64,000 nt of DNA from Mustelus asterias (taxonomy: Eukaryota): assembly GCF_964213995.1 (NCBI RefSeq), contig NW_027590745.1, forward strand, positions 1 through 64,000. The letters run 5' to 3'. The position numbers were made by a program, and so were the translations under genes. Shown piece by piece: positions 22,102-60,700 of this stretch. Under the pieces are notes generated by a model. That model was not told the origin of the DNA, made no database searches, and worked only from the letters and a program-made list of their open reading frames with translations. Every line of letters begins with the position of its first letter. Position 1 is the stretch's first letter.

Positions 22102-22755
22102 CTCCTTTCCCTCTCTTTTCCACACACCCACTGGTGGGAGGCTTCTGATGCAGCGCTCTCGGGCTGCTACCATAGCGCCTAGAACAAAGGACAATCCTGA
22201 CCAATCAATACTTGATGTGGCAAGTGCTTTACAACACCAACCTTGACCTGGTAGGCCCCTGGGGTGTTTGAAAGTAGAGCTGCCCTATGGAATATGCCTG
22301 GGCATCCCCAGCCACACAAGTGATGGCCAAGGCATATGCTCCTTCCTCCAAGAACATGTCTTTGGACACCATGCTCGGATCCACCTAAGTTACAATGCTC
22401 CCCGACTCCCAGATGGCTTCCACAGTTCTCTCTTCCACGTGACGGGTTTTTGGGGGTGCAGGGTTGATGGTGCGGCAGGCTGCAATGAGGTTACAGTCCA
22501 TATACTTGGGGTCATTCTTGTAGGGACATTGACCAGCCAGGTGTCTCACTTCCCTACAATAGCATGATCTCCCCTCTTTTTCCTCCGTTGTGTCTGCCAT
22601 CGCAGTTGCGGTGAAGGTGTTATCCATATTGGATTCTATTCTGAGAGCCATGGCTTCCTAGTCACCTCTTAGGCAACGGCTCCAGATGTTGTCATCGGGG
22701 AACAGCGCCCTTCAGTTTGGGCCCTACTTCAGACTTCCTGTCTTCAGTGGTACTG

Positions 22756-22940
22756 ATGTGGAAATGCCGGTGTTGGACTGGGTGGGCTACAGTAAGAAGC
22801 CTCACATCACCAGGTTAAAGTCCAACAGGTTTATTTGGAATCACAACCCAGATGGACCAGGTGTATGAGATCAACCATCTGAATCGTGATTCCAAATAAA
22901 CCTGTTGGACCTTAACCTGGTGTTGTGAGACTTCTTACTG
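22756..22940. mobile_element. Penelope-derived mini insertion with inverted termini around a 41-bp core
   Basis: Arms 22756-22844 and 22886-22940 are inverted; flanking duplication ttcag/ttcat...tactg (11/13). Confidence 0.88.
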
Positions 22941-23054
22941 TTCATTAGTACTGCTGTTGCTCAACGGATTACACTGCTTGATCCACCTATTGGGGATTCC
23001 CTTGTCTCACCAATCTCCTTACATCCAGTGGTAAAGTCCTGATAAGCGATCCAT

Positions 23055-23323: not shown

Positions 23324-24345
23324 AGCACAACTCTTCCCACCACAAGTCCTAGGCTGAGCTCCTCTGGTTATAGCCACCTCTTGGCCAGGTGCATGAGATC
23401 AACCGTCTGGGCCTGGGGTGCTCTGTCTTCTTTGTATACCCAGGCATGGAAGCGCTGAACCTGTGTAACCATCATCACTCCTAACCACGGTACAGTTTCT
23501 TTCTTCAGTGCCTCGTAATCCTCTGCTGCTTTCTCTTCCAGGTCATAATAAGCCTCTGGGTTTCACCAGGCACATGCGGGGCAATAATTCCATCCCGTTG
23601 TTCTCATGGCCAGGCGTTCCTGTTCACTGTCCGCTGAAATATCCTCAGAAAAGTTCCTCTGGAACTGCTGGGAGAGATTAAACCATCCAACTGGCAAGCT
23701 CAGCACTTAACCTATGGCGTTCAACCTGTAGTTGCTGATGACTCTTCCTTTACTCTTCCAGCAACAAACAGTTAGTCTCCACTTGAGTCCGAATGGCTTC
23801 GTACTGGGCCAGTACAGCCTGGACCGGTTGTTGTTGTATTAGGGCTTCCATGATTGAACTGAGTTCTCTGTGATTACCCATGACCTAACCCCACATTCTC
23901 CAGCAAATATGATGTCTCCAGGGGCTGGGGATTGCACTAGGTGGGGTGGAGTTTCTCAGTTCAATAACTCGCTGTTGTCCAGGTACAATATAAAGGTGAA
24001 TGTTTATTTACAGAACTTCAGACACTCACCAAAAGAGAAAAAAAGAGAATTAAATAACTAGTTCTTCCTTGCGCCTAACTTTACACACAGTTCTACACAC
24101 AGTACATCCTTCCATCTCCAAGGCAGCTTCCGCTCATTCACACGTGGGCTTCCCACCCAGCGAGACTCAGTACTCTGCTTATATAGCTTGGACCCTCGTT
24201 GTATCAATTATTAATCAGTCTGCATGTGACTTGCTGTGGCCATCTTGGTAGGAAAAGCTCTTGTCCAGATACTGGAGGATATCATGAGGGAAAATCCGAC
24301 CCTCCAACACACAGCCCCTGGTGACATCACAAACCTCCCAGTTAA

Positions 24346-48273: not shown

Positions 48274-48480
48274 CTGCGGGTATTAACCCAGCTAGGGGGA
48301 GGGGGAGGTGGGGGGGGGTAGGGGGGTTCCCCAGTTAGGAAGCATGCCAAGCAAACCCTGGCATATTTGCTTGCAGGTTCCAGGAGGAGGTGGGGGAACC
48401 CAGCATCTGGGTGTGATATCTCAAAGGATTGGCCACCATCAAGTTTAGTAACTAAACAAACTATTGGAAGAATCAACTAT

Positions 48481-49197
48481 GTGTGCGGAACTTGGCTATC
48501 AGTTTCTGCTCAGCGATTCTGCGTTGTCGTGTGTCGTGAAGGCCGCCTTGGAGAACACTTACCCGAAGATCAGAGGCTGAATGCCCGTGACTGCTGAAGT
48601 GTTCCCCGATTGAAAGGGAACACTCCTGCCTGGTGATTATCGAGCGGTGTTCATTCATCCGTTGTCATAGCGTCTGCATGGTCTCCCCAATGTACCATGT
48701 CTCGGACATTCAGCTTCTGATCTTCGGGTAAGCGTTCTCCAAGGCGGCCTTCACGACACACAACAATGCAGAGTCGCTCAGCAGGAACTGATAGCCAAGT
48801 TCCGCACACATGAGGACGGCCTCAACCGGGATCTTGGGTTCATGTCACACTATCTGTAACCCCCGCGACTTGCCTGGGCTTGCAAAATCTCACTAACTGT
48901 CCTGGCTGGAGACAATACACACCTCTTTAACCTCTGCTTAACCCTCTCTCCACTTACATTATCTGTACCTTTAAGACTTGATTACCTGTAAAGACTCGCA
49001 TTCCAACCATTATCTTGTAAATTGAGTTTGTGTCTTTATATGCCCTGTTTGTGAACACAACTCCCACTCACCTGATGAAGGGGCGAGACTCCGAAAGCTT
49101 GTGGCTTGTGCTACCAAATAAACCTGTTGGACTTTAACCTGGTGTTGTGAGACTTCTTACTGTGCTTACTCCAGTCCAACGCCGGCATCTCCACATA
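48481..49197 (+). mobile_element. Penelope-like element with inverted 5' segment (48481-48706 minus, remainder plus)
   Basis: GIY-YIG C-terminal sequence on both strands; pseudo-LTR and tail. Confidence 0.9.
49068..49104 (+). ncRNA. Minimal hammerhead ribozyme motif
   Basis: tcac-CTGATGA-aggggcgagactcc-GAAA-gctt-gtgg. Confidence 0.7.
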
Positions 49198-50825
49198 GTG
49201 ACGCAGTTCAGCAGGTGCTGTCTCCACAGCAGAGATAGCTTTGGTTTGATTTTCAGAATTTGGACTCTCAACTTGTAAAGGTGCATCTGTGCTTATTATT
49301 TATTTAGTCCTCGCAGGAATATTACTTGACCCTTCCTCAGGTTGACTTGCTTCTATACTTTTTTCATTCACAACAATATTACTGGCAGGTGTAACCGGAG
49401 CAGACTACCCCCATTGGTTCTCCATGTGATTCCTTTCTTCTCAAGTGATGTAAATGCTTTTGCAGAATTTTATCTTGAATTTGCCCCTCATATACCTACC
49501 CCTTTCTGGCCACAACAACGCCTGGGACCCAACTCGGACCAGTCACAAATATTTGATATATATTAGATCACCGACCTCGAATGCCCTCTCAATCCTAGTT
49601 GAATTGTGATTCTTCTTTTGAACACTTTGCTTTGCCTCCACCATCCCTGCCAAATTGGGAAACACCAGGTCCAACCTGGTCCTCATATGCCTGCCCATCA
49701 GCGACTTGGCAGGAGTTACTCCAGTGGTCATGTATGGTGTCGTCCTGTCGTTGATGAGAAAACGTGCTCATTTTGTCTGCAGGGATGCTGACGGTTGCTT
49801 TTTCATGGCTGCCTTAAAGGTCTGTGATGTCCTCTCAGTGAGTTCATTCGATGAGTGGTGGAAAGGTCGATACAGAGATGCTTGATGCCATTTGATGACA
49901 TGAAATGTTGGAACTCCTTGCTGGTAAATACTATTTCACTGTCTGAAACCAACATCTCTGAGCTTTGCCTTAACCTTTTCACTATTGCAAAATAAGTCGT
50001 GCACTTCATTTCATAAATATCCAGCCGTTTTGAGTGTGTGTCCACGATAAGTAGGAACATTGTACCCATAAATGGGCCTATAAAATCCACGTGAAGTCTC
50101 ACCCATGGCCGGCCTGGCCTTCCCAAGGGTGCAGTGGGGCTGCGGATGGTAACTTCTGTTGTACCTGACAATGGTCGCACCGCTAAATCATGCTCCCTGT
50201 GTTTGCATCTATCCCAGGCCACCAAACGTAGCTGTGAGCCAACATTTTCATCTTGGACATACCTGGGTGGGCGCTGTGTAATTCCTCAACTAACAACTTT
50301 CTGCCAGGTATGGAGACCACCACCCTCAATTCCCGCAGAATGATGCCGTCTTCACCGCTCAGTGCATCCTTCCTTCTTTGAAAGGGTTTTAGCCGTTCAG
50401 ACATTCTATCATAATGCCAGCCATCAAGAATCATGTGCTTTAATTCGGATAATATTGGATCTCTTTCTCCATTGAGAAAATTAAAGGCTAAGACATTTTT
50501 TTGTGGCACTGCTGGGGATGGCATATTGGGAGACAGCTCAAGGTGTCTGCATTTGATCTATGTGCCCCTAGCCAACAATAAACATTGTATCCTTACAGAC
50601 GCTATCTGAGGGATTGCTTTATATTCTCTGAACAGTCCGAGTAACATTTTATGATCAGTGATTATGGTAAAATGCCGCCCACAAATATATTGGTGGAATT
50701 TCTTGAAGATGGTGGCCAAACCCTTTTTCTCGATCAGTGAGTATGCCTTCTCTGCTTCAGTTAGAGTCCTTGAAGCGTAGTGAATGGGCTTTCTGACTCG
50801 TCATTCATTTCATGTGATACAACAT

Positions 50826-51150
50826 GGGGCAGCACGATGGCATAGTGGTTAGCACTGCTACCTCACAGCGCCGAGGACCTGGGTTCGATTCCTGGCTTGG
50901 GTCACTGTCTGTGTGGAGTTTGCATGTTCTCCCCATGTCTGCGTGGGTTTCCTCTGGGTGCTCCGGTTTCCTCTCACAGTCCAAACATGTGCGGGTTAGG
51001 TGGATTGGCCAAGTTAAATTGCCACTTAGTATCAGGGGGACGAGTAGGGTAAATATGTGGGGTTACGGGACTAGGGCCTGGGTGGGATTGTGGTCGGTGC
51101 AGACTCAATGGCCTGAATGGCCTCCTTCTGCACTGTAGGGATTCTATGAA
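50826..51150 (+). mobile_element. HE1-type V-SINE (CR1 tail)
   Basis: Full head, V body, tail ctgtagggattctatga. Confidence 0.9.
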
Positions 51151-53684
51151 CATAAGGAGATGCATCACAAGTGAGTCTGATTCCTTTAGAAGGATCAAAG
51201 TGGATTAAAAGGTAGGATGGTTGCAGGGTTTACTTCACTTGTCTGAAGGCTTCTTTTTACTGTGTCTTCTAGTATCATCTTTGGTTTTTTTTTAATAACG
51301 CATGTAGAGGTGCCAGCATCATAGACAAGTATGGAATGAATCTCCCATAATCATTTACTATTCCAAGGAAAGACTTTCACTTGTATGCGGTGCTTCTTTA
51401 ATGGCCCTAACTTCATCTTCTATCGGATGCAATCCTTATGTATCCACTCTAAAACCCAAATAAATCACCTCATTTGACTGAAAAGTACACCCCTCTCTCT
51501 TTAGTCTTACTCCAGCTTTGCATATGTTAGACCCCAATCAACTTTGCATACAATTCCTCTATTTTAGGTATACAGCACCTGGTCAGTCTCGGCTGCCCGG
51601 TTTATTGTTACTTTGTAGTCTTCGTATATTTGTACGATCCTATCTGGTTTGATGACCGGCACAATGGGAGCTGCCCACTCTGCAAATTACATGGGCTTTA
51701 TGATGCCCAAATCTTCTAATTGTTTAAGTTTGGTCTCCACCTTCTCATGCATCAAATAAGGCATGGGCTTGGAGGGCTGAAGGGCCTGTTCCTGTGCTGT
51801 AATTTTCTTTGTTCTTTGTTAAGTCTGGCTCTATAGAATTTTGATGTAGCTTCTGGATCCACATGAACTTTGGCTTTCAAGCCTCAGATTTTGCCCAATT
51901 CATCTTGAATGCCCAATGGTATCTTCTGAGGACTTCATGTAAGCCCCCTTCATTCATTTTAAAAATTTCTAGCCAATTTAGTTACCTGAAGCCAATCTTG
52001 ACCCATCAAGCTTAGTCCTTGGCCCAGAACTACAAGTAATAGCTGTTGGGTAGATTGCCGTTTGTAACTTAGAGGTTGTTGTTGTTTCCAAGATCCGTAT
52101 AGCCTCACCCGTGTACATAGCCAGTTTGACTGCAGTATTTTTTAATCTCAGGGGTTAGACCCCTCTCAGTAGGTATCGATAAACTTGCTCTCCTACTACT
52201 GTGGTGGAGGCTCCTATCCACCTCCATTTTGAATGGACGACCATTGACCATCAGTATTATTGAGATAGGGGCTACCTTGCCCACTTTAATATTATTCAAC
52301 TTATGTACATTTGGTCCCCCTTTACAATTATTCTTCATGCTGTTCACTGGAGGTGAAATCTTGACCCTGCTAGCACCCTGCTGGACTCTGCAATTGCTTC
52401 TTACATTCCCCATTCTGCCACAGGTATAACACAGCTTCCTTGAACTTTCATTTCTTCTGGGGGTGATTTCCCCCACACCGATAGCACTCTTCCCAAATCT
52501 TGGTTTGTTGACCGAATCTCTTATACCTCTGCACTTACGCTCTGCATTTCTTTGCTTGTTAAACCCTGTGGGCATCCTTGGCGCCGCTGCCACTAGCAAC
52601 TTCCCTCCAAACTTGATGGATCTTGCATGCCTTGAAGCTCTATAGCATCCTTTTACACACTTTCCATGGCAAGGGCCATTTCTAGCGCCTTCTTTAGGGG
52701 TATTTCTGCTTCTGCCAACAGTTTTTTCCCGAATGGCAGTATTATTCACCCCACACACTAGACGGTCTCTCAACATATCATTAAGGGCAGACCCAAATTC
52801 ACAATGTCCAGCTGTTTGTCTCAATCTCGCCATGAAAGCTGCAGTCACTTCCTCAGGAGCTCTTGCTGTTGAGTTGAACTTATATCTTTGTATGATTACC
52901 AAGAACTTTGGATGATAATGCCCTTTTACTATTTCCACCAGCTGTTTGAAGGTTTGAGAGTCAGCACATCTGGAGAAGTCAAGTTCCTCATTAAATTGTA
53001 GGTTTGGGAACTGCAAGTTGTTAGAAGTATTACCCTCTTCTCCACAATCCTCTATTTCATTTGCTTTTCAAAAATATTGCTAGCTTTTGATGTATTGAAC
53101 CCAATTTTCTGAATTAGGATCAAAGGGTTGTAATTTTCAGAATAGAGGCATTGTTGTAACTTCCCGACTCTTGAATGGACCTGGCTTTAATGACTCTGCT
53201 CTGTCTATGTGGCAATTTGAAAGTTCTCTGTTGACCCTTATCACCAATGTGACATCAAAGAGTTGGTGACTCCCAAGTTTAGTAACTAAACAAACTATTT
53301 ATCATAATGAATCAACTACGTACAGAGTGCAAGAAATGTGCCACTGACTATTTGGACTCCAGTCTCAGACTGACTGAGAAAGCCCGTGCTCAGCCCTGGG
53401 ATTCGCACACTCCGGGCGCGATTGGTTGATTGGGTCACATGACCCTCCAAAACCTTGCACCCCCCCCCCCCCCCCCCCCCCGCCCCCCCGCCACTGCTGC
53501 TGATCCCTCTCCCCTCCATCCTCATTTCCCTCTTCACTCACCTGGGCCTGGGGCCCTCCTCGATCCGACACCTCAGGTGGGTGTAGTATAGTCATCGCCT
53601 CCCGGTGACATTGCTGAGTGCAGAAGAGCTTTCGGCCGTTGATTGACTGGCAGTTTTTGGTGGACATGACTTCCAACCCCCCCA

Positions 53685-53830
53685 ATGGGAGCTTGCTGTG
53701 CACAAATTGGATGGCACGTTTCCTTCATTATAAACAGTGACTACTTCAAAAGTACTTCACTGGCTGCCAAGAGCTTTGGATTGTCCTGGGCTCCTGAAAG
53801 ACACTACAGAAATGCAATCTCTTTCTTTCA
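53685..53830 (+). mobile_element. Deu-SINE 3' fragment
   Basis: tgggagcttgctgtgcacaaattgg...acagtgactacttcaaaagtacttcactggctg. Confidence 0.65.
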
Positions 53831-53943
53831 TTTCTCTCTGTTAATCTGTTAGATATTGTAGAGTGAAGCCTGACTGCAGCAATTGCTGATAAATAGCTGG
53901 CTGTCACCAGGTGAGGCATGTTGGGACTGGGTGCAGTATATGA

Positions 53944-54482
53944 TGCTACGACAACGGATGAATGAACACCGCTCGACAATCACCAGGCAGGAGTGTTCCC
54001 TTCCAGTCGGGGAGCACTTCAGCAGTCACGGGCATTTAGCCTCTGATCTCCGGGTAAGCGTTCTCCAAGGCGGCCTTCACAACACACGACAGCGCAGAGT
54101 CGCTGAGCAGAAACTGATAGCCAAGTTCCGCACACATGAGGACGGCCTCAACCGGGATCTTGGGTTCATGTCACACTATCTGTAACCCCCACGACTTGCC
54201 AGGGCTTGCAAAATCTCACTAAGTGTCCTGGCTGGAGACAATACACATCTCTTTAACCTGTGCTTAACCCTCTCTCCACTCACATTGTCTGTACCTTTAA
54301 GACTTGATTACCTGTAAAGACTTGCATTCCAACCATTATCTTGTAAATTGAGTTTGTGTCTTTATATGCCCTGTTTGTGAACACAACTCCCACTCACCTG
54401 ATGAAGGGGCCTGAGACTCTGAAAGCTAGTGCTGCCAAATAAACCTGTTGGACTTTAACCTGGTGTTGTGAGACTTATTACT
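53944..54482 (+). mobile_element. Penelope-like element 3' fragment with hammerhead core (54394-54432)
   Basis: LRQRMNEHRSTITRQECSLPVGEHF...GLNRDLGFMSHYL*; flanked by a 13-bp duplication gtgcagtatatga (53931 and 54483). Confidence 0.92.
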
Positions 54483-54823
54483 GTGCAGTATATGAATGCA
54501 GACCGCCCTACCCCAGAAAGAGGTCTTACCCACAGCACAGGGCTGTTTGTAGCTTTGTGAGTATCACTGGTAGTTTAAGCTGCTTCTCCAGAAGTGAAAG
54601 GTCAGGCGATAACCTCAGTAACTCACTCAGCTAACACTCAGCGAACCACTCCAGCCGCTCAAATTACAAGTGAGCACCCAGTGACTCATGTCTGCACTTT
54701 TAAAGCTTAAAATAAAAGCATCATTCATGGAGAGGAGGGCGGGTATGGCTCTGGCTTGGGTGAACACTGTAAGAAGTCCCACAACACCAGGTTAAAGTCC
54801 AACAGGTTTATTTGTAGCAAACG

Positions 54824-54862
54824 CCACTAGCTTTCGGAACTGGCTGTTCCTTCGTCAGGTGG
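54824..54862 (-). ncRNA. Minimal hammerhead ribozyme motif, fully paired
   Basis: ccac-CTGACGA-a-GGAAC/agcca/GTTCC-GAAA-gcta-gtgg. Confidence 0.82.
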
Positions 54863-55087
54863 GTGGGAGTTCTGCTGATCCCTCTCCCCTCCATCCTCAT
54901 TTCCCTCTTCACTCACCTGGGCCTGGGGCCCTCCTCGATCCGACACCTTAGGTGGGTGGTCACAGACAAGCTGCACATTGACGGAGTGGAATCCCTTGCG
55001 ATTCATGAATGCGCCGCGTGTCACCATGGAGCGTCATCAGACCTTTTGGGTCCTCCAAATCATCAGATGATGCACCAGAACCCCCGC

Positions 55088-55126
55088 CCGCCTGACGAAG
55101 GAACAGCCAGTTCCGAAAGCTAGTGG
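55088..55126 (+). ncRNA. Minimal hammerhead ribozyme motif
   Basis: ccgc-CTGACGA-a-GGAAC/agcca/GTTCC-GAAA-gcta-gtgg. Confidence 0.8.
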
Positions 55127-55291
55127 CGTTTGCTACAAATAAACCTGTTGGACTTTAACCTGGTGTTGTGAGACTTCTTACTGTGTTTACCCCAGTCCAA
55201 CGCCGGCATCTCCACATCTTGAGTGAACTCAAGCAGTGAACTCTAGTGAGTGAACTCGAGCAGTGCGGTGATGGATATGTCTGGTAAATCG

Positions 55292-55498
55292 GGGGTTGGT
55301 TTAGCTCAGTTGGCTGGACGGCTGGTTAGTGATACAGAGCAACGCCAGCAGCACGGGTTCAATTCCTGTACAGGCTGAGGCTTGTCAACCTTGCCCCTTG
55401 CCTGAGGTGTGAATCCTCAGATTAAATCACCATCAGTCAACTCTCCCCCTCAAAGAGCAGAGCAGCTTATGGTCATCTGTGACTATGGCGACTTTACC
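55292..55498 (+). mobile_element. tRNA-derived SINE of a second family
   Basis: A box tagctcagttgg, B box ggttcaattcc, tail gactatggcgacttta. Confidence 0.75.
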
Positions 55499-55543
55499 GT
55501 TCCCCATGTCTGGTAAATGTACTTATTTACATAAAGAAATTAG

Positions 55544-55654
55544 GGGCGAAATTCTCCAGCCTCCCAGGAGGCGTTGTTTCCTGCCGCGAGTGGGGGTGCG
55601 CTGCCAGCGGGACTGGAGAATGCTCCCAGAGTGAACAGTTGGAGAATTCCGGTC
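55544..55654. mobile_element. Harbinger-type MITE
   Basis: TIRs gggcgaaattctcc / ggagaattccggtc; TSD-like TAG/AAG. Confidence 0.7.
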
Positions 55655-56469
55655 AAGATCTTTCACAATCTTGGGAAGTTCCAAAGCTCTTTGTAACCAA
55701 TGAGGTACAGTCATTATTGTCATGCAGGGACCCTAGCAACCAATTTCTGCACAGTAAGCTCCCACAAACAGATCTTGGTTGTGGGATAAATATTGGCAAC
55801 AACACCACAGAGAACACCCCTTCTTAGATAACACTACGGAATCATTTACATTGCATTCAAAAGATGACGCCTGCATCAATTCTGTCAACCTAGTTCCCAT
55901 TTAAAATCTCCAGAGGTTTTCTAAGAGTGGATGATACCTTTTGGGATTGCCCAGGGAGCTGGCTGGAGCACTGGAATCAGCCCTATCAACAATCTGTATC
56001 ATCAGAAGGATTGAAGTGGACACAGGACTGGATGGAGTTGGTGGGAGGATTTACCCACTCGGAGTGACAGACACCTGAAAAGTTCCAACAGTTTTGGAAA
56101 TTATGGGCTGGAGTTTAACTGCTCATTGTGCTGGCTGCCGGGGAGCCCAGCAGCACATGGGGAAGCCGGAAGTTTCCGGAGAGGGTTTGTGAGTGTCTTT
56201 TTAACCCAGTCACTGCAATAGCAATCTGACTGCCTGTTGGACCAGCGGGCATGAAATAAAAACACAAAAATGCCTATTTTTCACTGAACTATGGGGATCC
56301 TGTCGGCTGAAAGTTGAAAGATTACCCAGATGTCTCAATAAAGCAGGAAATTTCAACTGCAAGAGAATATCTCACTTCACTGAAATCTCCTCCAGCTCTG
56401 ATGCCGCTGCTGTAACAGTCCACAGGAAGATTCACTCCCCAGCCAATGCAAGCAAGAAATGTGGCCCAG

Positions 56470-57075
56470 TGCGCTCTATGGTGGCACGCGGCGCATTCAT
56501 GAATCGCAAGGGATTCCACTCCCTCAATGTGCAGCTTGTCTGTGACCTCACAATGAACTTCATGCAGGTGTGAGCCCATTGCCCATGGAGCGTCCATGAC
56601 AGCTACATCTTGGGCCACTCTCAGATCCCAGCTATCTTTGAGGGAGAGCGGCAGCTGGACAGATGGCTCCTTGGGGACATTGGGTACCCACTCAGGAGGT
56701 GTCTGATGATGCGACAAACACCAGCGGAGACTCATTATAGTGAGCCTCATGCTTCAATGCGCGTGCTGATCGAGCAGGTGACTAGCCTGCTGAAGATGTG
56801 GTTCTAGTGCCTGAACCGGTCACCCCACAGAGGGTCCTCCAAATCACTGTAGTCTGCTGTGCTCTCCACAACTTGGTGCTGCCAAGAGGAGACCACCTGG
56901 ACCTGAAGGAGATGGAGGAGCACCACATCTCCCCGGATGAGGAGGACTTCGAGGAGGGCAGTGAGAGTGACCACGCAGAAGAGGAGGCGGAAGAAGCCCG
57001 GGCAATGGTCAGAGCCTGACTGGGCCGACATGCTAGGAATGGCCTCATCACATCTCGCTTCGGGGACAAGCAGGG
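56470..57075 (+). mobile_element. PIF/Harbinger DDE transposase remnant
   Basis: FMNRKGFHSLNVQLVCD, PWSVHDSYIL, WLLGDIGYPL, VLIEQVTSLLKMWF*CL, VVCCALHNL, acidic tail; contains stops. Confidence 0.92.
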
Positions 57076-57789
57076 CGAGGGAGCAACTAGCTCTCCCACC
57101 ATGGGGACTAACATCTAACCAGTGATGTGGTGCCAGCAGTGTGCTCCTATGCTTTTGTGCAGGGCACTGAAGCTATTGGCCAGACTCTGCGGGAGAACAA
57201 TGATGGCTTGCATTGAGGAAAGAGCAATGCTCCTCTCATCCTCAGCGATATGTCTGACTCCTATGAACTGAACGCGACCTGCCATCGAAAGGGCTTATCA
57301 TAGGGCTCAGAAATGTGGGCTGCGCAGCATCAGCTACTACAGGTCCCCCACCCACGTCAGAGGTCGTGGTGTTCACCTCCATCTTACAGCTGAGGTGGGC
57401 AGCCTGGCAGCACCTCAACAGCTCTTGGCCTCGTGATCACTAGAGAACACTGTTAGGCTTGAGAGGGGTGCGCTTTGACAGAGGGGGCGGTGGGGGGTTC
57501 ACCCCAACATGGCTGGGGGATGGGCTGCTGGCGGAGTGGGGCTGCCAGCAGCAGCGCCTCCTTACTGTGTTGTCGGTGTGGGAGGGACATGGCACTGCCA
57601 TTCTCACACTCCACAGGGAGGAGGAGCTGGGTGAGGCGGTGGTTCTCCAAGCTTGGAGGCATCAACAAGACAGGGTGGAGGCTCTGGGTGAACAAAATGA
57701 CATTTAATGCCAAACAATCAGTACAAAATGCTGACCTATCAACCCTGATGCCTATATTCACCCATACCCAAAGTGCCTACGGTTCCTTA

Positions 57790-60700
57790 ATCTTCCTCAT
57801 CCTCACACTGAGCCTAGGTGTATCCCCAGGATCCACAGCTAAGGTTGAGGTGGTCTGCCGACTTCCACACTCTTTTGCCTGAGATGACCTTGACGGGCAT
57901 CCCCTTGCTTCCGGGCAGCACCGATGTTTGACTGTTGCCTTCCTCCGTGTGTCACAGGGAGGGCAGTGTCAGATGGGCTGGAGACTCCCAGGGTCCCCTG
58001 GCTGGAAGGTCCCTTGACTGTACTTCTGCTGATCCTCTTCCCTTTGGGTTCCTGAGGGCCCCTGTGCTCCTCCATGGGATGGAGGGGGAGCTGGAATGAG
58101 ATCCAGAAGCGCCGCTGTCCTCTGGCACTGCCACTCATGGATTCCCACCAGTGCCTGCACCATGCAGTTGAAGCCCTGCGGCATGGAGCTCACGCCCTCC
58201 GACATGGCAGTCATGAGTTGAGCCATGGTGTGGACATTTCCTGCCATGGAATGCTCATCCTGCGGCAAGGTCTCCATTGCAGATGTCACCCTCGCAGTGT
58301 TGGCCTCAATCCGCTGCAGGGACAGCATCATTTCATTGGATAGATGGCGATGGGGTTCCTCCAATAGGCCTTGCAGTCCTTAAAGGGCTGCTTCCTGATA
58401 CTCATGACTGCGCCTTTGCAACTGCAGCAGCTGTGGGACAACCGGGCCCAGGGGTACATCATCAGCAAGGGTAAGGGGAATCCTAGGCTCCAGCATCTCT
58501 CCCCGAGTGCCAGCTACCTGGGACATCCCTGTCTCTATTTGTTAAGAATCTTCAGCTGTGAGTGTCCCAGAAACCTGTCTACTTAGTGAACCCACTGAGG
58601 TTTAAGTATCTGTTCTGGTGCCAAGTGCGGGTGCCAGCTGTGATGCCTCTTCAATGGTGGGGTTGGAGAAGTCCCCCTCTGGGCTGCTGGAGTCTGGTGG
58701 GTCCAGGTGGTCCAAGGATGGTATGGTCTGTTCTGTTGGTCGGTCTGCAAGAGAAGGGACATGGCATCAGTGCACTGCAGGGGACATGGAGGGAACATTG
58801 ATTACTCACTGGAGACTTGAGGAATGACAGCATACGTGTTGAGGATTCTCTAATTTCTCTGCTGCCCCCACAGTACCAACAGTATAGGCACAGTCTTCCT
58901 CCTCCCCAGCCAGATCGAGGGCACGCTCCTCAAAACCCGTGAGGGTTCTCAGCTCAGGCATGACTCTTGCTGGCTGCACCCGCTGACGCCTGATTGAATT
59001 TGTCCTGCAGTGACAGATGGGGAGAGTGTAAAGAACAAAGAACAATACAGCACAGGAACAGGCTCTTCGGCCCTCCAAGCCCGTGCCGCTCCCTGGTCCA
59101 AACTAGACCATTCTTTTGTATCCCTCCATTCCCACTCCGTTCATATGGCTATCTAGATAAGTCTTAAACGTTCCCAGTGTGTCCGCCTCCACCACCTTGC
59201 CTGGCAGCGCATTCCAGGCCCCCACCACCCTCTGTGTAAAATATGTCCTTCTGATATCTGTGTTAAACCTCCCCCCCTTCACCTTGAACCTATGACCCCT
59301 CGTGAACGTCACCACCGACCTGGTGAAAAGCTTCCCACCGTTCACCCTATCTATGCCTTTCATAATTTTATACACCTCTATTAACTCTCCCCTCATCCTC
59401 CGTCTTTCCAGGGAGAACAACCCCAGTTTACCCAATCTCTCCTCATAACTAAGCCCCTCCATACCAGGCAACATCCTGGTAAACCTCCTCTGTACTCTCT
59501 CCAAAGCCTCCACGTCCTTCTGGTAGTGTGGCGACCAGAACTGGATGCAGTATTCCAAATGCAGCCGAACCAACGTTCTATACATCTGCAACATCAGACC
59601 CCAACTTTTATGCACTATGCCCCGTCCTATAAAGGCAAGCATGCCATATGCCTTCTTCACCACCTTCTCCACCTGTGACGTCACCTTCAAGGATCTGTGG
59701 ACTTGTACACCCAGGTCCCTCTGCGTATCTACACCCTTTATGGTTCTGCCATTTATCGTATAGCTCCTCCCTACATTATTTCTACCAAAATGCATCACTT
59801 CGCATTTATCAGGATTGAACTCCATCTGTCATTTCTTTGCCCAAATTTCCAGCCTATCTATATCCTTCTGTAGCTTCTGACAATGCTCCTCACTATCTGC
59901 AAGTCCTGCCAATTTTGTGTCGTCCGCAAACTTACTGATCACCCCAGTTACACCTTCTTCCAGATCGTTTATATAAATCACAAACAGCAGAGGTCCCAAT
60001 ACAGAGCCCTGCGGAACACCACTAGTCACAGGCCTCCAGCCGGAAAAAGACCCTTCCACTACCACCCTCTGTCTTCTGTGACCAAGCCAGTTCTCCACCC
60101 ATCTAGCCACCTCCCCCTTTATCCCATGAGATCCAACCTTTTTCACCAGCCTACCATGAGGGACTTTGTCAAACGCTTTACTAAAGTCCATATAGACTAC
60201 ATCCACGGCCCTTCCCTCGTCAACCATTCTGGTCACTTCTTCAAAAAACTCCACCAGGTTAGTGAGGCATGACCTCCCTCTCACAAAACCATGCTGACTA
60301 TCGTTAATGAGTTTATTCCTTTCTAAATGCGCATACATCCTATCTCTAAGAATCTTCTCCAACAACTTCCCCACCACGGACGTCAAGCTCACCGGCCTAT
60401 AATTTCCCGGGTTATCCTTCCTACCCTTCTTAAATAATGGGACCACATTAGCTATCCTCCAATCCTCTGGGACCTCATCTGCATCCAGTGACGAGACAAA
60501 GATTTGCGTCAAGAGGCCCAGCGATTTCATCTCTCGTCTCCCTGAGCAGCCTTGGATAGATTCCATCAGGCCCTGGGGATTTGTCAGTCTTTATATTCTC
60601 TAACAAACCTAACACTTCCTCCCTTGTAATGGAGATTTTCTCCAACGGTTCAACACTCCCCTCCGAGACACTCCCAGTCAACACATCCCTCTCCTTTGTG

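Follow-up and report, generated by a model that had tools for sequence, protein, structure and literature searches.

Canonical endonuclease-positive Penelope-like elements are characterized by a 5'-truncated copy arranged head-to-head, a tail at one end, a target duplication and palindromes at the junctions (PMC8557442, PMC3846280, PMC11167929), all of which are shared by the insertion described here, whereas neither a filler traced to the flanks nor a statistic on equal arm ends, both found in this work, is described in the available portions of these reports. According to the available text, the Penelope protein of the anole nicks and extends both strands, using two reverse-transcription start sites 30-40 nt apart (PMC11167929), and the origin of the inverted ends of Penelope is stated as unresolved (PMC8557442, PMC11167929). 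In the rotifer Adineta vaga, solo pLTRs also enclose unrelated host DNA inside the target duplication; however, in the accessible part of that report, the sources of the non-coding pieces are left untraced and the gene-derived case comes from another locus, whereas here the source lies within 2 kb (PMC3846280). Apart from this rotifer remark, no report of flank-derived fillers in Penelope elements was found in our literature search, whose coverage was incomplete.

Templated insertion itself is known from L1, R2 and induced breaks. New insertions of L1 may likewise contain a copy of non-element genomic DNA, shorter than 250 bp (10.1101/2024.08.27.596794, PMC11702581); in the available sections of these sources, 22 templated insertions are counted among ~3,600 human L1 insertions in the former, a rate similar to the ~0.5% estimated here, and 3 cases are described in the latter. 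Features of the L1 type that are also met here include a local copy inside the target duplication, an intact donor, and a filler of the same age as the insertion. As far as these sources are accessible, the typical L1 template is located no more than 15 bp from the insertion site, whereas the median distance here is ~550 bp, reaching up to 1.5 kb, and, unlike the L1 cases, the fillers of this work stand between two arms of the same sequence and are inherited. At induced breaks in human cells, inserts with a median of 120 bp, 2-3 nt of microhomology and multiple donors have been reported, with one third of the donors located within 2 kb of the cut site (10.1101/2022.09.30.509517, available portion). 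Our fillers are alike in size, in their donors within 2 kb, in microhomology and in the use of multiple donors; those inserts, however, are somatic and nuclease-made, with many donor breaks genome-wide, whereas here the donor adjoins the element's own site. Further, in the accessible part of a report on R2 snap-back junctions (PMC11371274), the cDNA 3' end primes on itself or on nearby target before joining, which is comparable to the present case, although R2 leaves a single-arm insertion at a fixed rDNA site and two arms are found here.

In this work, we analysed a stretch of 64,000 nt of Mustelus asterias DNA (the window), in which the segment 54755-55228 is a single Penelope-like solo-pLTR insertion, with a target duplication and one full-tail arm (Table 1). 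As the preliminary description had proposed, the unit consists of inverted Penelope arms: these lie head-to-head, are 93% complementary across 123 nt in the alignment of 54755-54877 with 55073-55195, and end at an identical base, with a tail of ~34 nt on one arm only. The 11-bp target duplication (10/11, one mismatch) was recognized by eye, having been missed by the script. The one-tail geometry and the target duplication agree with the Penelope structure given in the available text of PMC8557442 and PMC3846280. The unit has no ORF of its own. A hammerhead-like motif at 55092-55118, in the primary arm, combines core-like motifs, judged against the hammerhead core consensus, with a stem II fold (z 0.26); no Rfam match was obtained for a hammerhead in 53000-58000, the scan's one match being at chance level.

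Table 1. Features of the inverted Penelope unit and of its donors (positions in the window).
Feature	Position	Strand	Basis and remarks
Left target-site duplication copy, 11 bp	54755-54765	.	Sequence; 9/11 like the element's tail strand
Secondary (inverted) pLTR arm, beginning ~34 nt short of the element 3' end	54766-54874	-	Alignment
Direct copy of 53497-53583, 87 nt, far-end entry, 3-nt microhomology	54872-54958	+	Alignment
Inverted copy of 56472-56547, 76 nt, far-end entry, 1-nt microhomology	54958-55033	-	Alignment
Short patchwork: 12-mer = 56583-56594, inverted 9-mer = 56701-56709; each at chance level	55024-55047	.	
Direct copy of 56832-56846, 15 nt	55048-55062	+	0/120 null stretches reach 15
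Putative fold-back-like tiny piece (6-nt inverted repeat) linking the core to the right arm	55059-55075	.	Sequence; interpretation
Primary pLTR arm with full tail (tail ~55185-55218)	55076-55218	+	
Right target-site duplication copy	55218-55228	.	Sequence
Upstream donor, intact	53497-53583	+	Genome search; retained at its position in X1 and X6 contigs
Downstream donor region, intact, within a DDE_Tnp_4 transposase remnant, presumably Harbinger-type	56472-56846	+	PF13359, E 4e-7, above cutoff

The core enclosed by the arms comprises ~200 nt, and the preliminary description had interpreted it as copied from local DNA on both sides. This interpretation holds, since local donors match better than dispersed copies: the 87-nt piece derives from 1.2 kb upstream and the 76-nt piece from 1.3 kb downstream, the donors as a whole lying 1.2-1.6 kb away on both sides, and every match described earlier is present (86/87, 73/76 and 15/15, with 10/11 for the flanks). 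With 40 of 198 candidates scored, the genome search recovered the 87-nt piece at its local donor only, besides a duplicate contig (C2929), and gave 96% identity of the 76-nt piece to its local donor vs 87% for the best-matching dispersed copy of comparable length. The complete mosaic was likewise found, among the 40/198 candidates scored in the search with the core, at this locus (C713) and at C2929 only, so that a pre-formed MITE, expected at many unlinked loci, was discarded. C2929 repeats the locus at 99.7-99.8% over ~6 kb, with one difference falling in the right arm, and is probably its other haplotype. Core and donors differ at 4 sites; on comparison of the 3 mismatches of the 76-nt piece with 24 dispersed copies, one looks like a later donor change, one like a core change, and the third is ambiguous.

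Regarding the short pieces, also thought to be local copies, the claim stood for the 15-mer at 55048-55062, which exceeds the longest exact match in 120/120 other 4-kb stretches (null maximum 13), and not for the 11/12 piece (9 exact), which, like the 12-mer 55024-55035 = 56583-56594, is at chance level alone, as matches of at least 12 nt are reached in 8/120 null stretches. Microhomology of 1-3 nt at the junctions was corroborated, with 3 nt between left arm and donor and 1 nt where the long pieces meet. Support from reads was partial: one X16 contig, free of differences, passes the left junction by 29 nt only, into the arm, and no contig spans the whole core among the public-run pieces listed. 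Contigs of run X1 retain both donors at their positions, and in run X6 the upstream donor is retained; X1 and X6 contigs depart from the window sequence at 54754 (103 letters over) and 54756 (76 letters over), respectively, and this parting where an empty allele would split suggests an empty site in these runs. Since repeats fit the core, read depth in other runs carries no information there. Separately, one X1 contig aligns on both sides of 55952-56304 and not inside, which suggests a 350-bp indel between species.

Regarding the element itself, a longer copy of the same subfamily (L039) displays a RVT_1 match of 29.7 bits (cutoff 29.6) followed by a GIY-YIG match that is weak (E 0.003, 18.3 bits, under the cutoff of 22.6), its frames being broken; this order agrees with the single ORF of endonuclease-positive Penelope-like elements, located upstream of the pLTR, in which RT is followed by a C-terminal GIY-YIG domain. 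Using exact anchors, 14,501 inverted pairs within 462 nt were found genome-wide, and an inverted arm occurred within ~200 bp at 14/40 scored places. One full-tail arm was present in 54 of the 61 units examined, the second arm being 28-40 nt short in 48/54, and 40/54 had a target duplication of at least 10 nt with at most one mismatch (median 13). For these elements, a pair of inverted arms with the tail on one side only is the normal arrangement.

Local copying between Penelope arms is real and recurrent in this genome. A total of 60 pairs were chosen from pattern-search listings by 80-nt previews, mostly for a non-element look and with their flanks unseen, and 10 kb was taken around each. Seven of the 61 units were excluded for lacking one-tail geometry (L121, L122, L127, L130, L139, L141 and L144) and 9 further units because their non-element filler was shorter than 25 nt, which left 44 besides the unit 54755-55228. 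Flank matches were also seen in excluded units, namely 212 nt at 95% from ~1.0-1.2 kb in L141, 41 nt at 90% from 2.7 kb in L121, and 63 nt at 89% from 3.9 kb in L122. Under a fixed rule, a filler was considered local if it matched at least 40 nt at 87% identity within 2 kb and better than at any other locus; short nearby inserts are left uncounted by the 40-nt floor. The rule was passed by 21/44 fillers, and by 20 after removal of L142, whose 42-nt copy from 6 bp away is a target-adjacent duplication. This alignment of other inverted-arm loci to their flanks, which the preliminary description had proposed as a check, thus gave 20/44 local fillers vs 14/440 length-matched control windows from the same loci; the control windows are not independent, all 14 hits coming from 4 loci. 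Each of the 20 loci has its own distinct, locally matched filler of 40-384 nt (median 102), with donors located 60-1457 bp from the unit (median ~550), 0/20 within 15 bp and none beyond 2 kb in flanks of ±4.8 kb. Two loci were ambiguous: L093 matched locally at 95.9% vs 95.1% elsewhere, and L105 matched better elsewhere and was left out of the count.

Sixteen of the 20 local fillers sit in the first 100 listed rows of two pattern searches, 43 of which had 10 kb taken; scaling yields ~75/469 short-armed pairs, or ~0.5% of the 14,501 inverted pairs, which is a minimum estimate, as any filler enclosed by long arms stays hidden. Among unselected loci, no local filler was found in the 13 pairs detected at 27 loci, where the exact anchors missed some pairs, or in the 30 loci L061-L090 within ±1.5 kb. 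The patterns designed to exclude element cores did so only in part, as the register varies between subfamilies. Given this frequency and the length of all copies (at most 384 nt), the earlier proposal that these elements are agents of local templated shuffling was overstated; the genome-level effect is small, with short duplications at ~0.5% or more of the inverted pairs.

Other kinds of sequence were observed between arms. The centres of L095, L107, L128, L131 and L139 contain whole or 3' parts of a SINE, presumably tRNA-like, which distant copies match better than local ones, suggesting SINE RNA capture or later insertion. Those of L108, L116, L123, L134 and L147 are palindromic non-element fillers, in which both arms share one junction in a fold-back-like manner and for which no donor was found within 5 kb. 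In L125 and L148 the filler is the element's own ORF start, which is located downstream of the tail, suggesting a switch onto element RNA. Within the window, 22755-22944 is an older second inverted Penelope unit (tail on the left; by eye, a duplication of 13 bp containing 2 mismatches), with a 55-nt core of which 25 nt match 23385-23409, 440 bp off, at 92% (E 2e-5 in the window).

The age of the fillers was assessed by non-CpG divergence, which amounted to 50/1509 (3.3%) between arms and 79/2705 (2.9%) between filler and donor. Both measures track each other over 22 loci (Spearman rho 0.83), hence the fillers are of the same age as the insertions within the resolution of a clock too coarse to tell integration apart from breakage a few generations afterwards; the copying during integration proposed in the preliminary description is in line with this result. 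At a young locus, L097, arms and filler are 100% identical. Furthermore, the arm ends are at most 3 nt apart in 18/22 local-filler units (permutation mean 7.2; 0/100000 reach 18), a coincidence so far above chance that the arms are not independent copies. The 25 long pairs without local filler include 9 symmetric ones, the remainder being mostly direct asymmetric joins. A fixed transcription start as the full cause of the equal arm ends is unlikely, as in 9/25 long pairs the symmetry, to within 5 nt, occurs at distances of 40-113 nt from the anchor.

The junctions display 0-6 nt of microhomology across loci, and in ~7 loci (by eye) short duplications or slippage flank the filler on both sides. 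Sequence from the arm-arm centre is duplicated on both filler sides in L101, L110, L119, L124, L141 and L143, and in L099 and L133 the filler is joined to both arms at one and the same donor base. By side and orientation, the 20 local fillers comprise 6 tail-side inverted, 5 tail-side direct, 4 other-side inverted, 3 other-side direct and 2 palindromic cases, with no evident side or strand bias; with every class present, a strand rule derived from resection was unsupported. A copying direction with clean entry at the far end and a messy near end fits the core of the unit, and across loci the count is ~10 vs 6 (by eye).

Since filler size, range and microhomology resemble those of inserts at induced breaks in human cells, we give roughly even odds to a filler copied by host break-repair synthesis during closure of the insertion, in the present unit from both sides at 1.2-1.6 kb. 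The element would cut both strands, and either its two reverse-transcription start sites would serve to extend both ends or the second arm would be copied from the first, yielding two ends equal in sequence and length and unable to pair. These ends would usually be trimmed and then joined directly; rarely, the break would persist, and one 3' end may prime through 1-6 nt of microhomology on DNA in a processed zone of 0-2 kb, copy 40-400 nt and possibly hop again (twice or more in the unit 54755-55228), before a joining step that would leave small self-templated scars. Signs of a polymerase-theta type, although not specific to this enzyme, are the overlaps of 0-6 nt and the slippage and fold-back pieces at the junctions; inserts made by polymerase theta typically measure tens of bases and come from the immediate flank, a pattern exceeded by fillers of median 102 nt and up to 384 nt with donors a median of ~550 bp off. 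Against host repair, the arms of L099 and L133 enter the donor at the same base, reading toward the break, on the strand expected to be lost to resection; the core, provided that its short pieces are genuine, must draw on both strands of the downstream donor; and other fillers are non-local SINE or LINE pieces or the element ORF start, which suit an RNA-reading enzyme. These observations are better explained, for L099, L133, the SINE and the ORF-start fillers, if the element's own RT left its RNA, jumped to local DNA (e.g., the 3' end of a nicked flank) or to nascent RNA, and continued, which we consider possible with clearly lower probability than host repair. The shared donor junction of both arms in L099 and L133, several junctions with 0-1 nt of overlap, among them the unit's internal one, fillers as long as 384 nt, and the use of whole SINE copies and the element ORF start point to the RT. 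Conversely, slippage and fold-back scars, which are found at the junctions, are typical of host end joining, and the 2-kb limit would be better explained by end processing than by a long transcript. In the available text on R2, cDNA ends prime on nearby rDNA and take up extra RNA templates (PMC11371274), a precedent for the RT, whereas jumping onto DNA is not described for the Penelope protein in the accessible portion of PMC11167929. As judged from the letters, an element RT and a host polymerase would be indistinguishable as the enzyme that did the copying.

It is also conceivable, with still lower probability, that the insertion was first closed as a near-perfect palindrome whose centre broke later, without the element protein, host repair then adding the local copy. 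The symmetric arm ends and the centre sequence duplicated beside the filler in the six loci named above would be accounted for, and perfect palindromes in the mouse are rearranged at the centre at a high rate (PMC8701086, available part); in the same source, however, 93% of 118 rearrangements are deletions and spacer gain is uncommon, and, in our data, filler and arms have diverged equally and the fillers of L099 and L133 are symmetric on both arms, which places the filler before or with the second arm. We hold it unlikely, to a similar degree, that twin insertion routinely leaves a persistent break with two identical ends which the element's telomerase-like RT closes by jumping to nicked flank fragments 0.1-1.5 kb off and copying in the direction of the break; if this were true, inverted Penelope units would record, like fossils, how ends are processed in the germline, and would repeatedly give rise to local sequence duplications across animals. 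Far less probable than any of these is that the core was a small element formed beforehand, matches dispersed repeats by chance or results from misassembly: such a reading could draw on the downstream donor belonging to a repeat family, the limited number of candidates scored (40/198), the lack of a read contig across the core among those listed, and the ambiguity of L093 and L105, whereas the mosaic occurs at a single locus, on two contigs differing by 0.2-0.3%, 4 sites set the core apart from its donors, and 20 other loci have different local fillers.

Two results bear on the origin of the inverted ends, stated as unresolved in PMC8557442 and PMC11167929: the arms end together, and the gap is sometimes filled from less than 2 kb away. 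The 14,501 inverted pairs of this single genome constitute a large inherited sample of the germline closure of such breaks.

Additional elements were observed in the window. The interval separating the upstream donor from the unit contains an older single-arm Penelope copy (~53935-54487), whose target duplication measures 13 bp by eye, and in a further copy, at 48479-49196, an inverted segment of the ORF end adjoins a forward copy. On the minus strand, 49803-53067 contains broken frames resembling LTR-retrotransposon gag, protease and integrase (by eye), and 59103-60590 contains well-kept LINE reverse transcriptase frames, CR1-like by eye, which the non-local filler of L105 matches at 97%. At the contig start, a tandem array with a spacing of 23 nt extends over 14-328.
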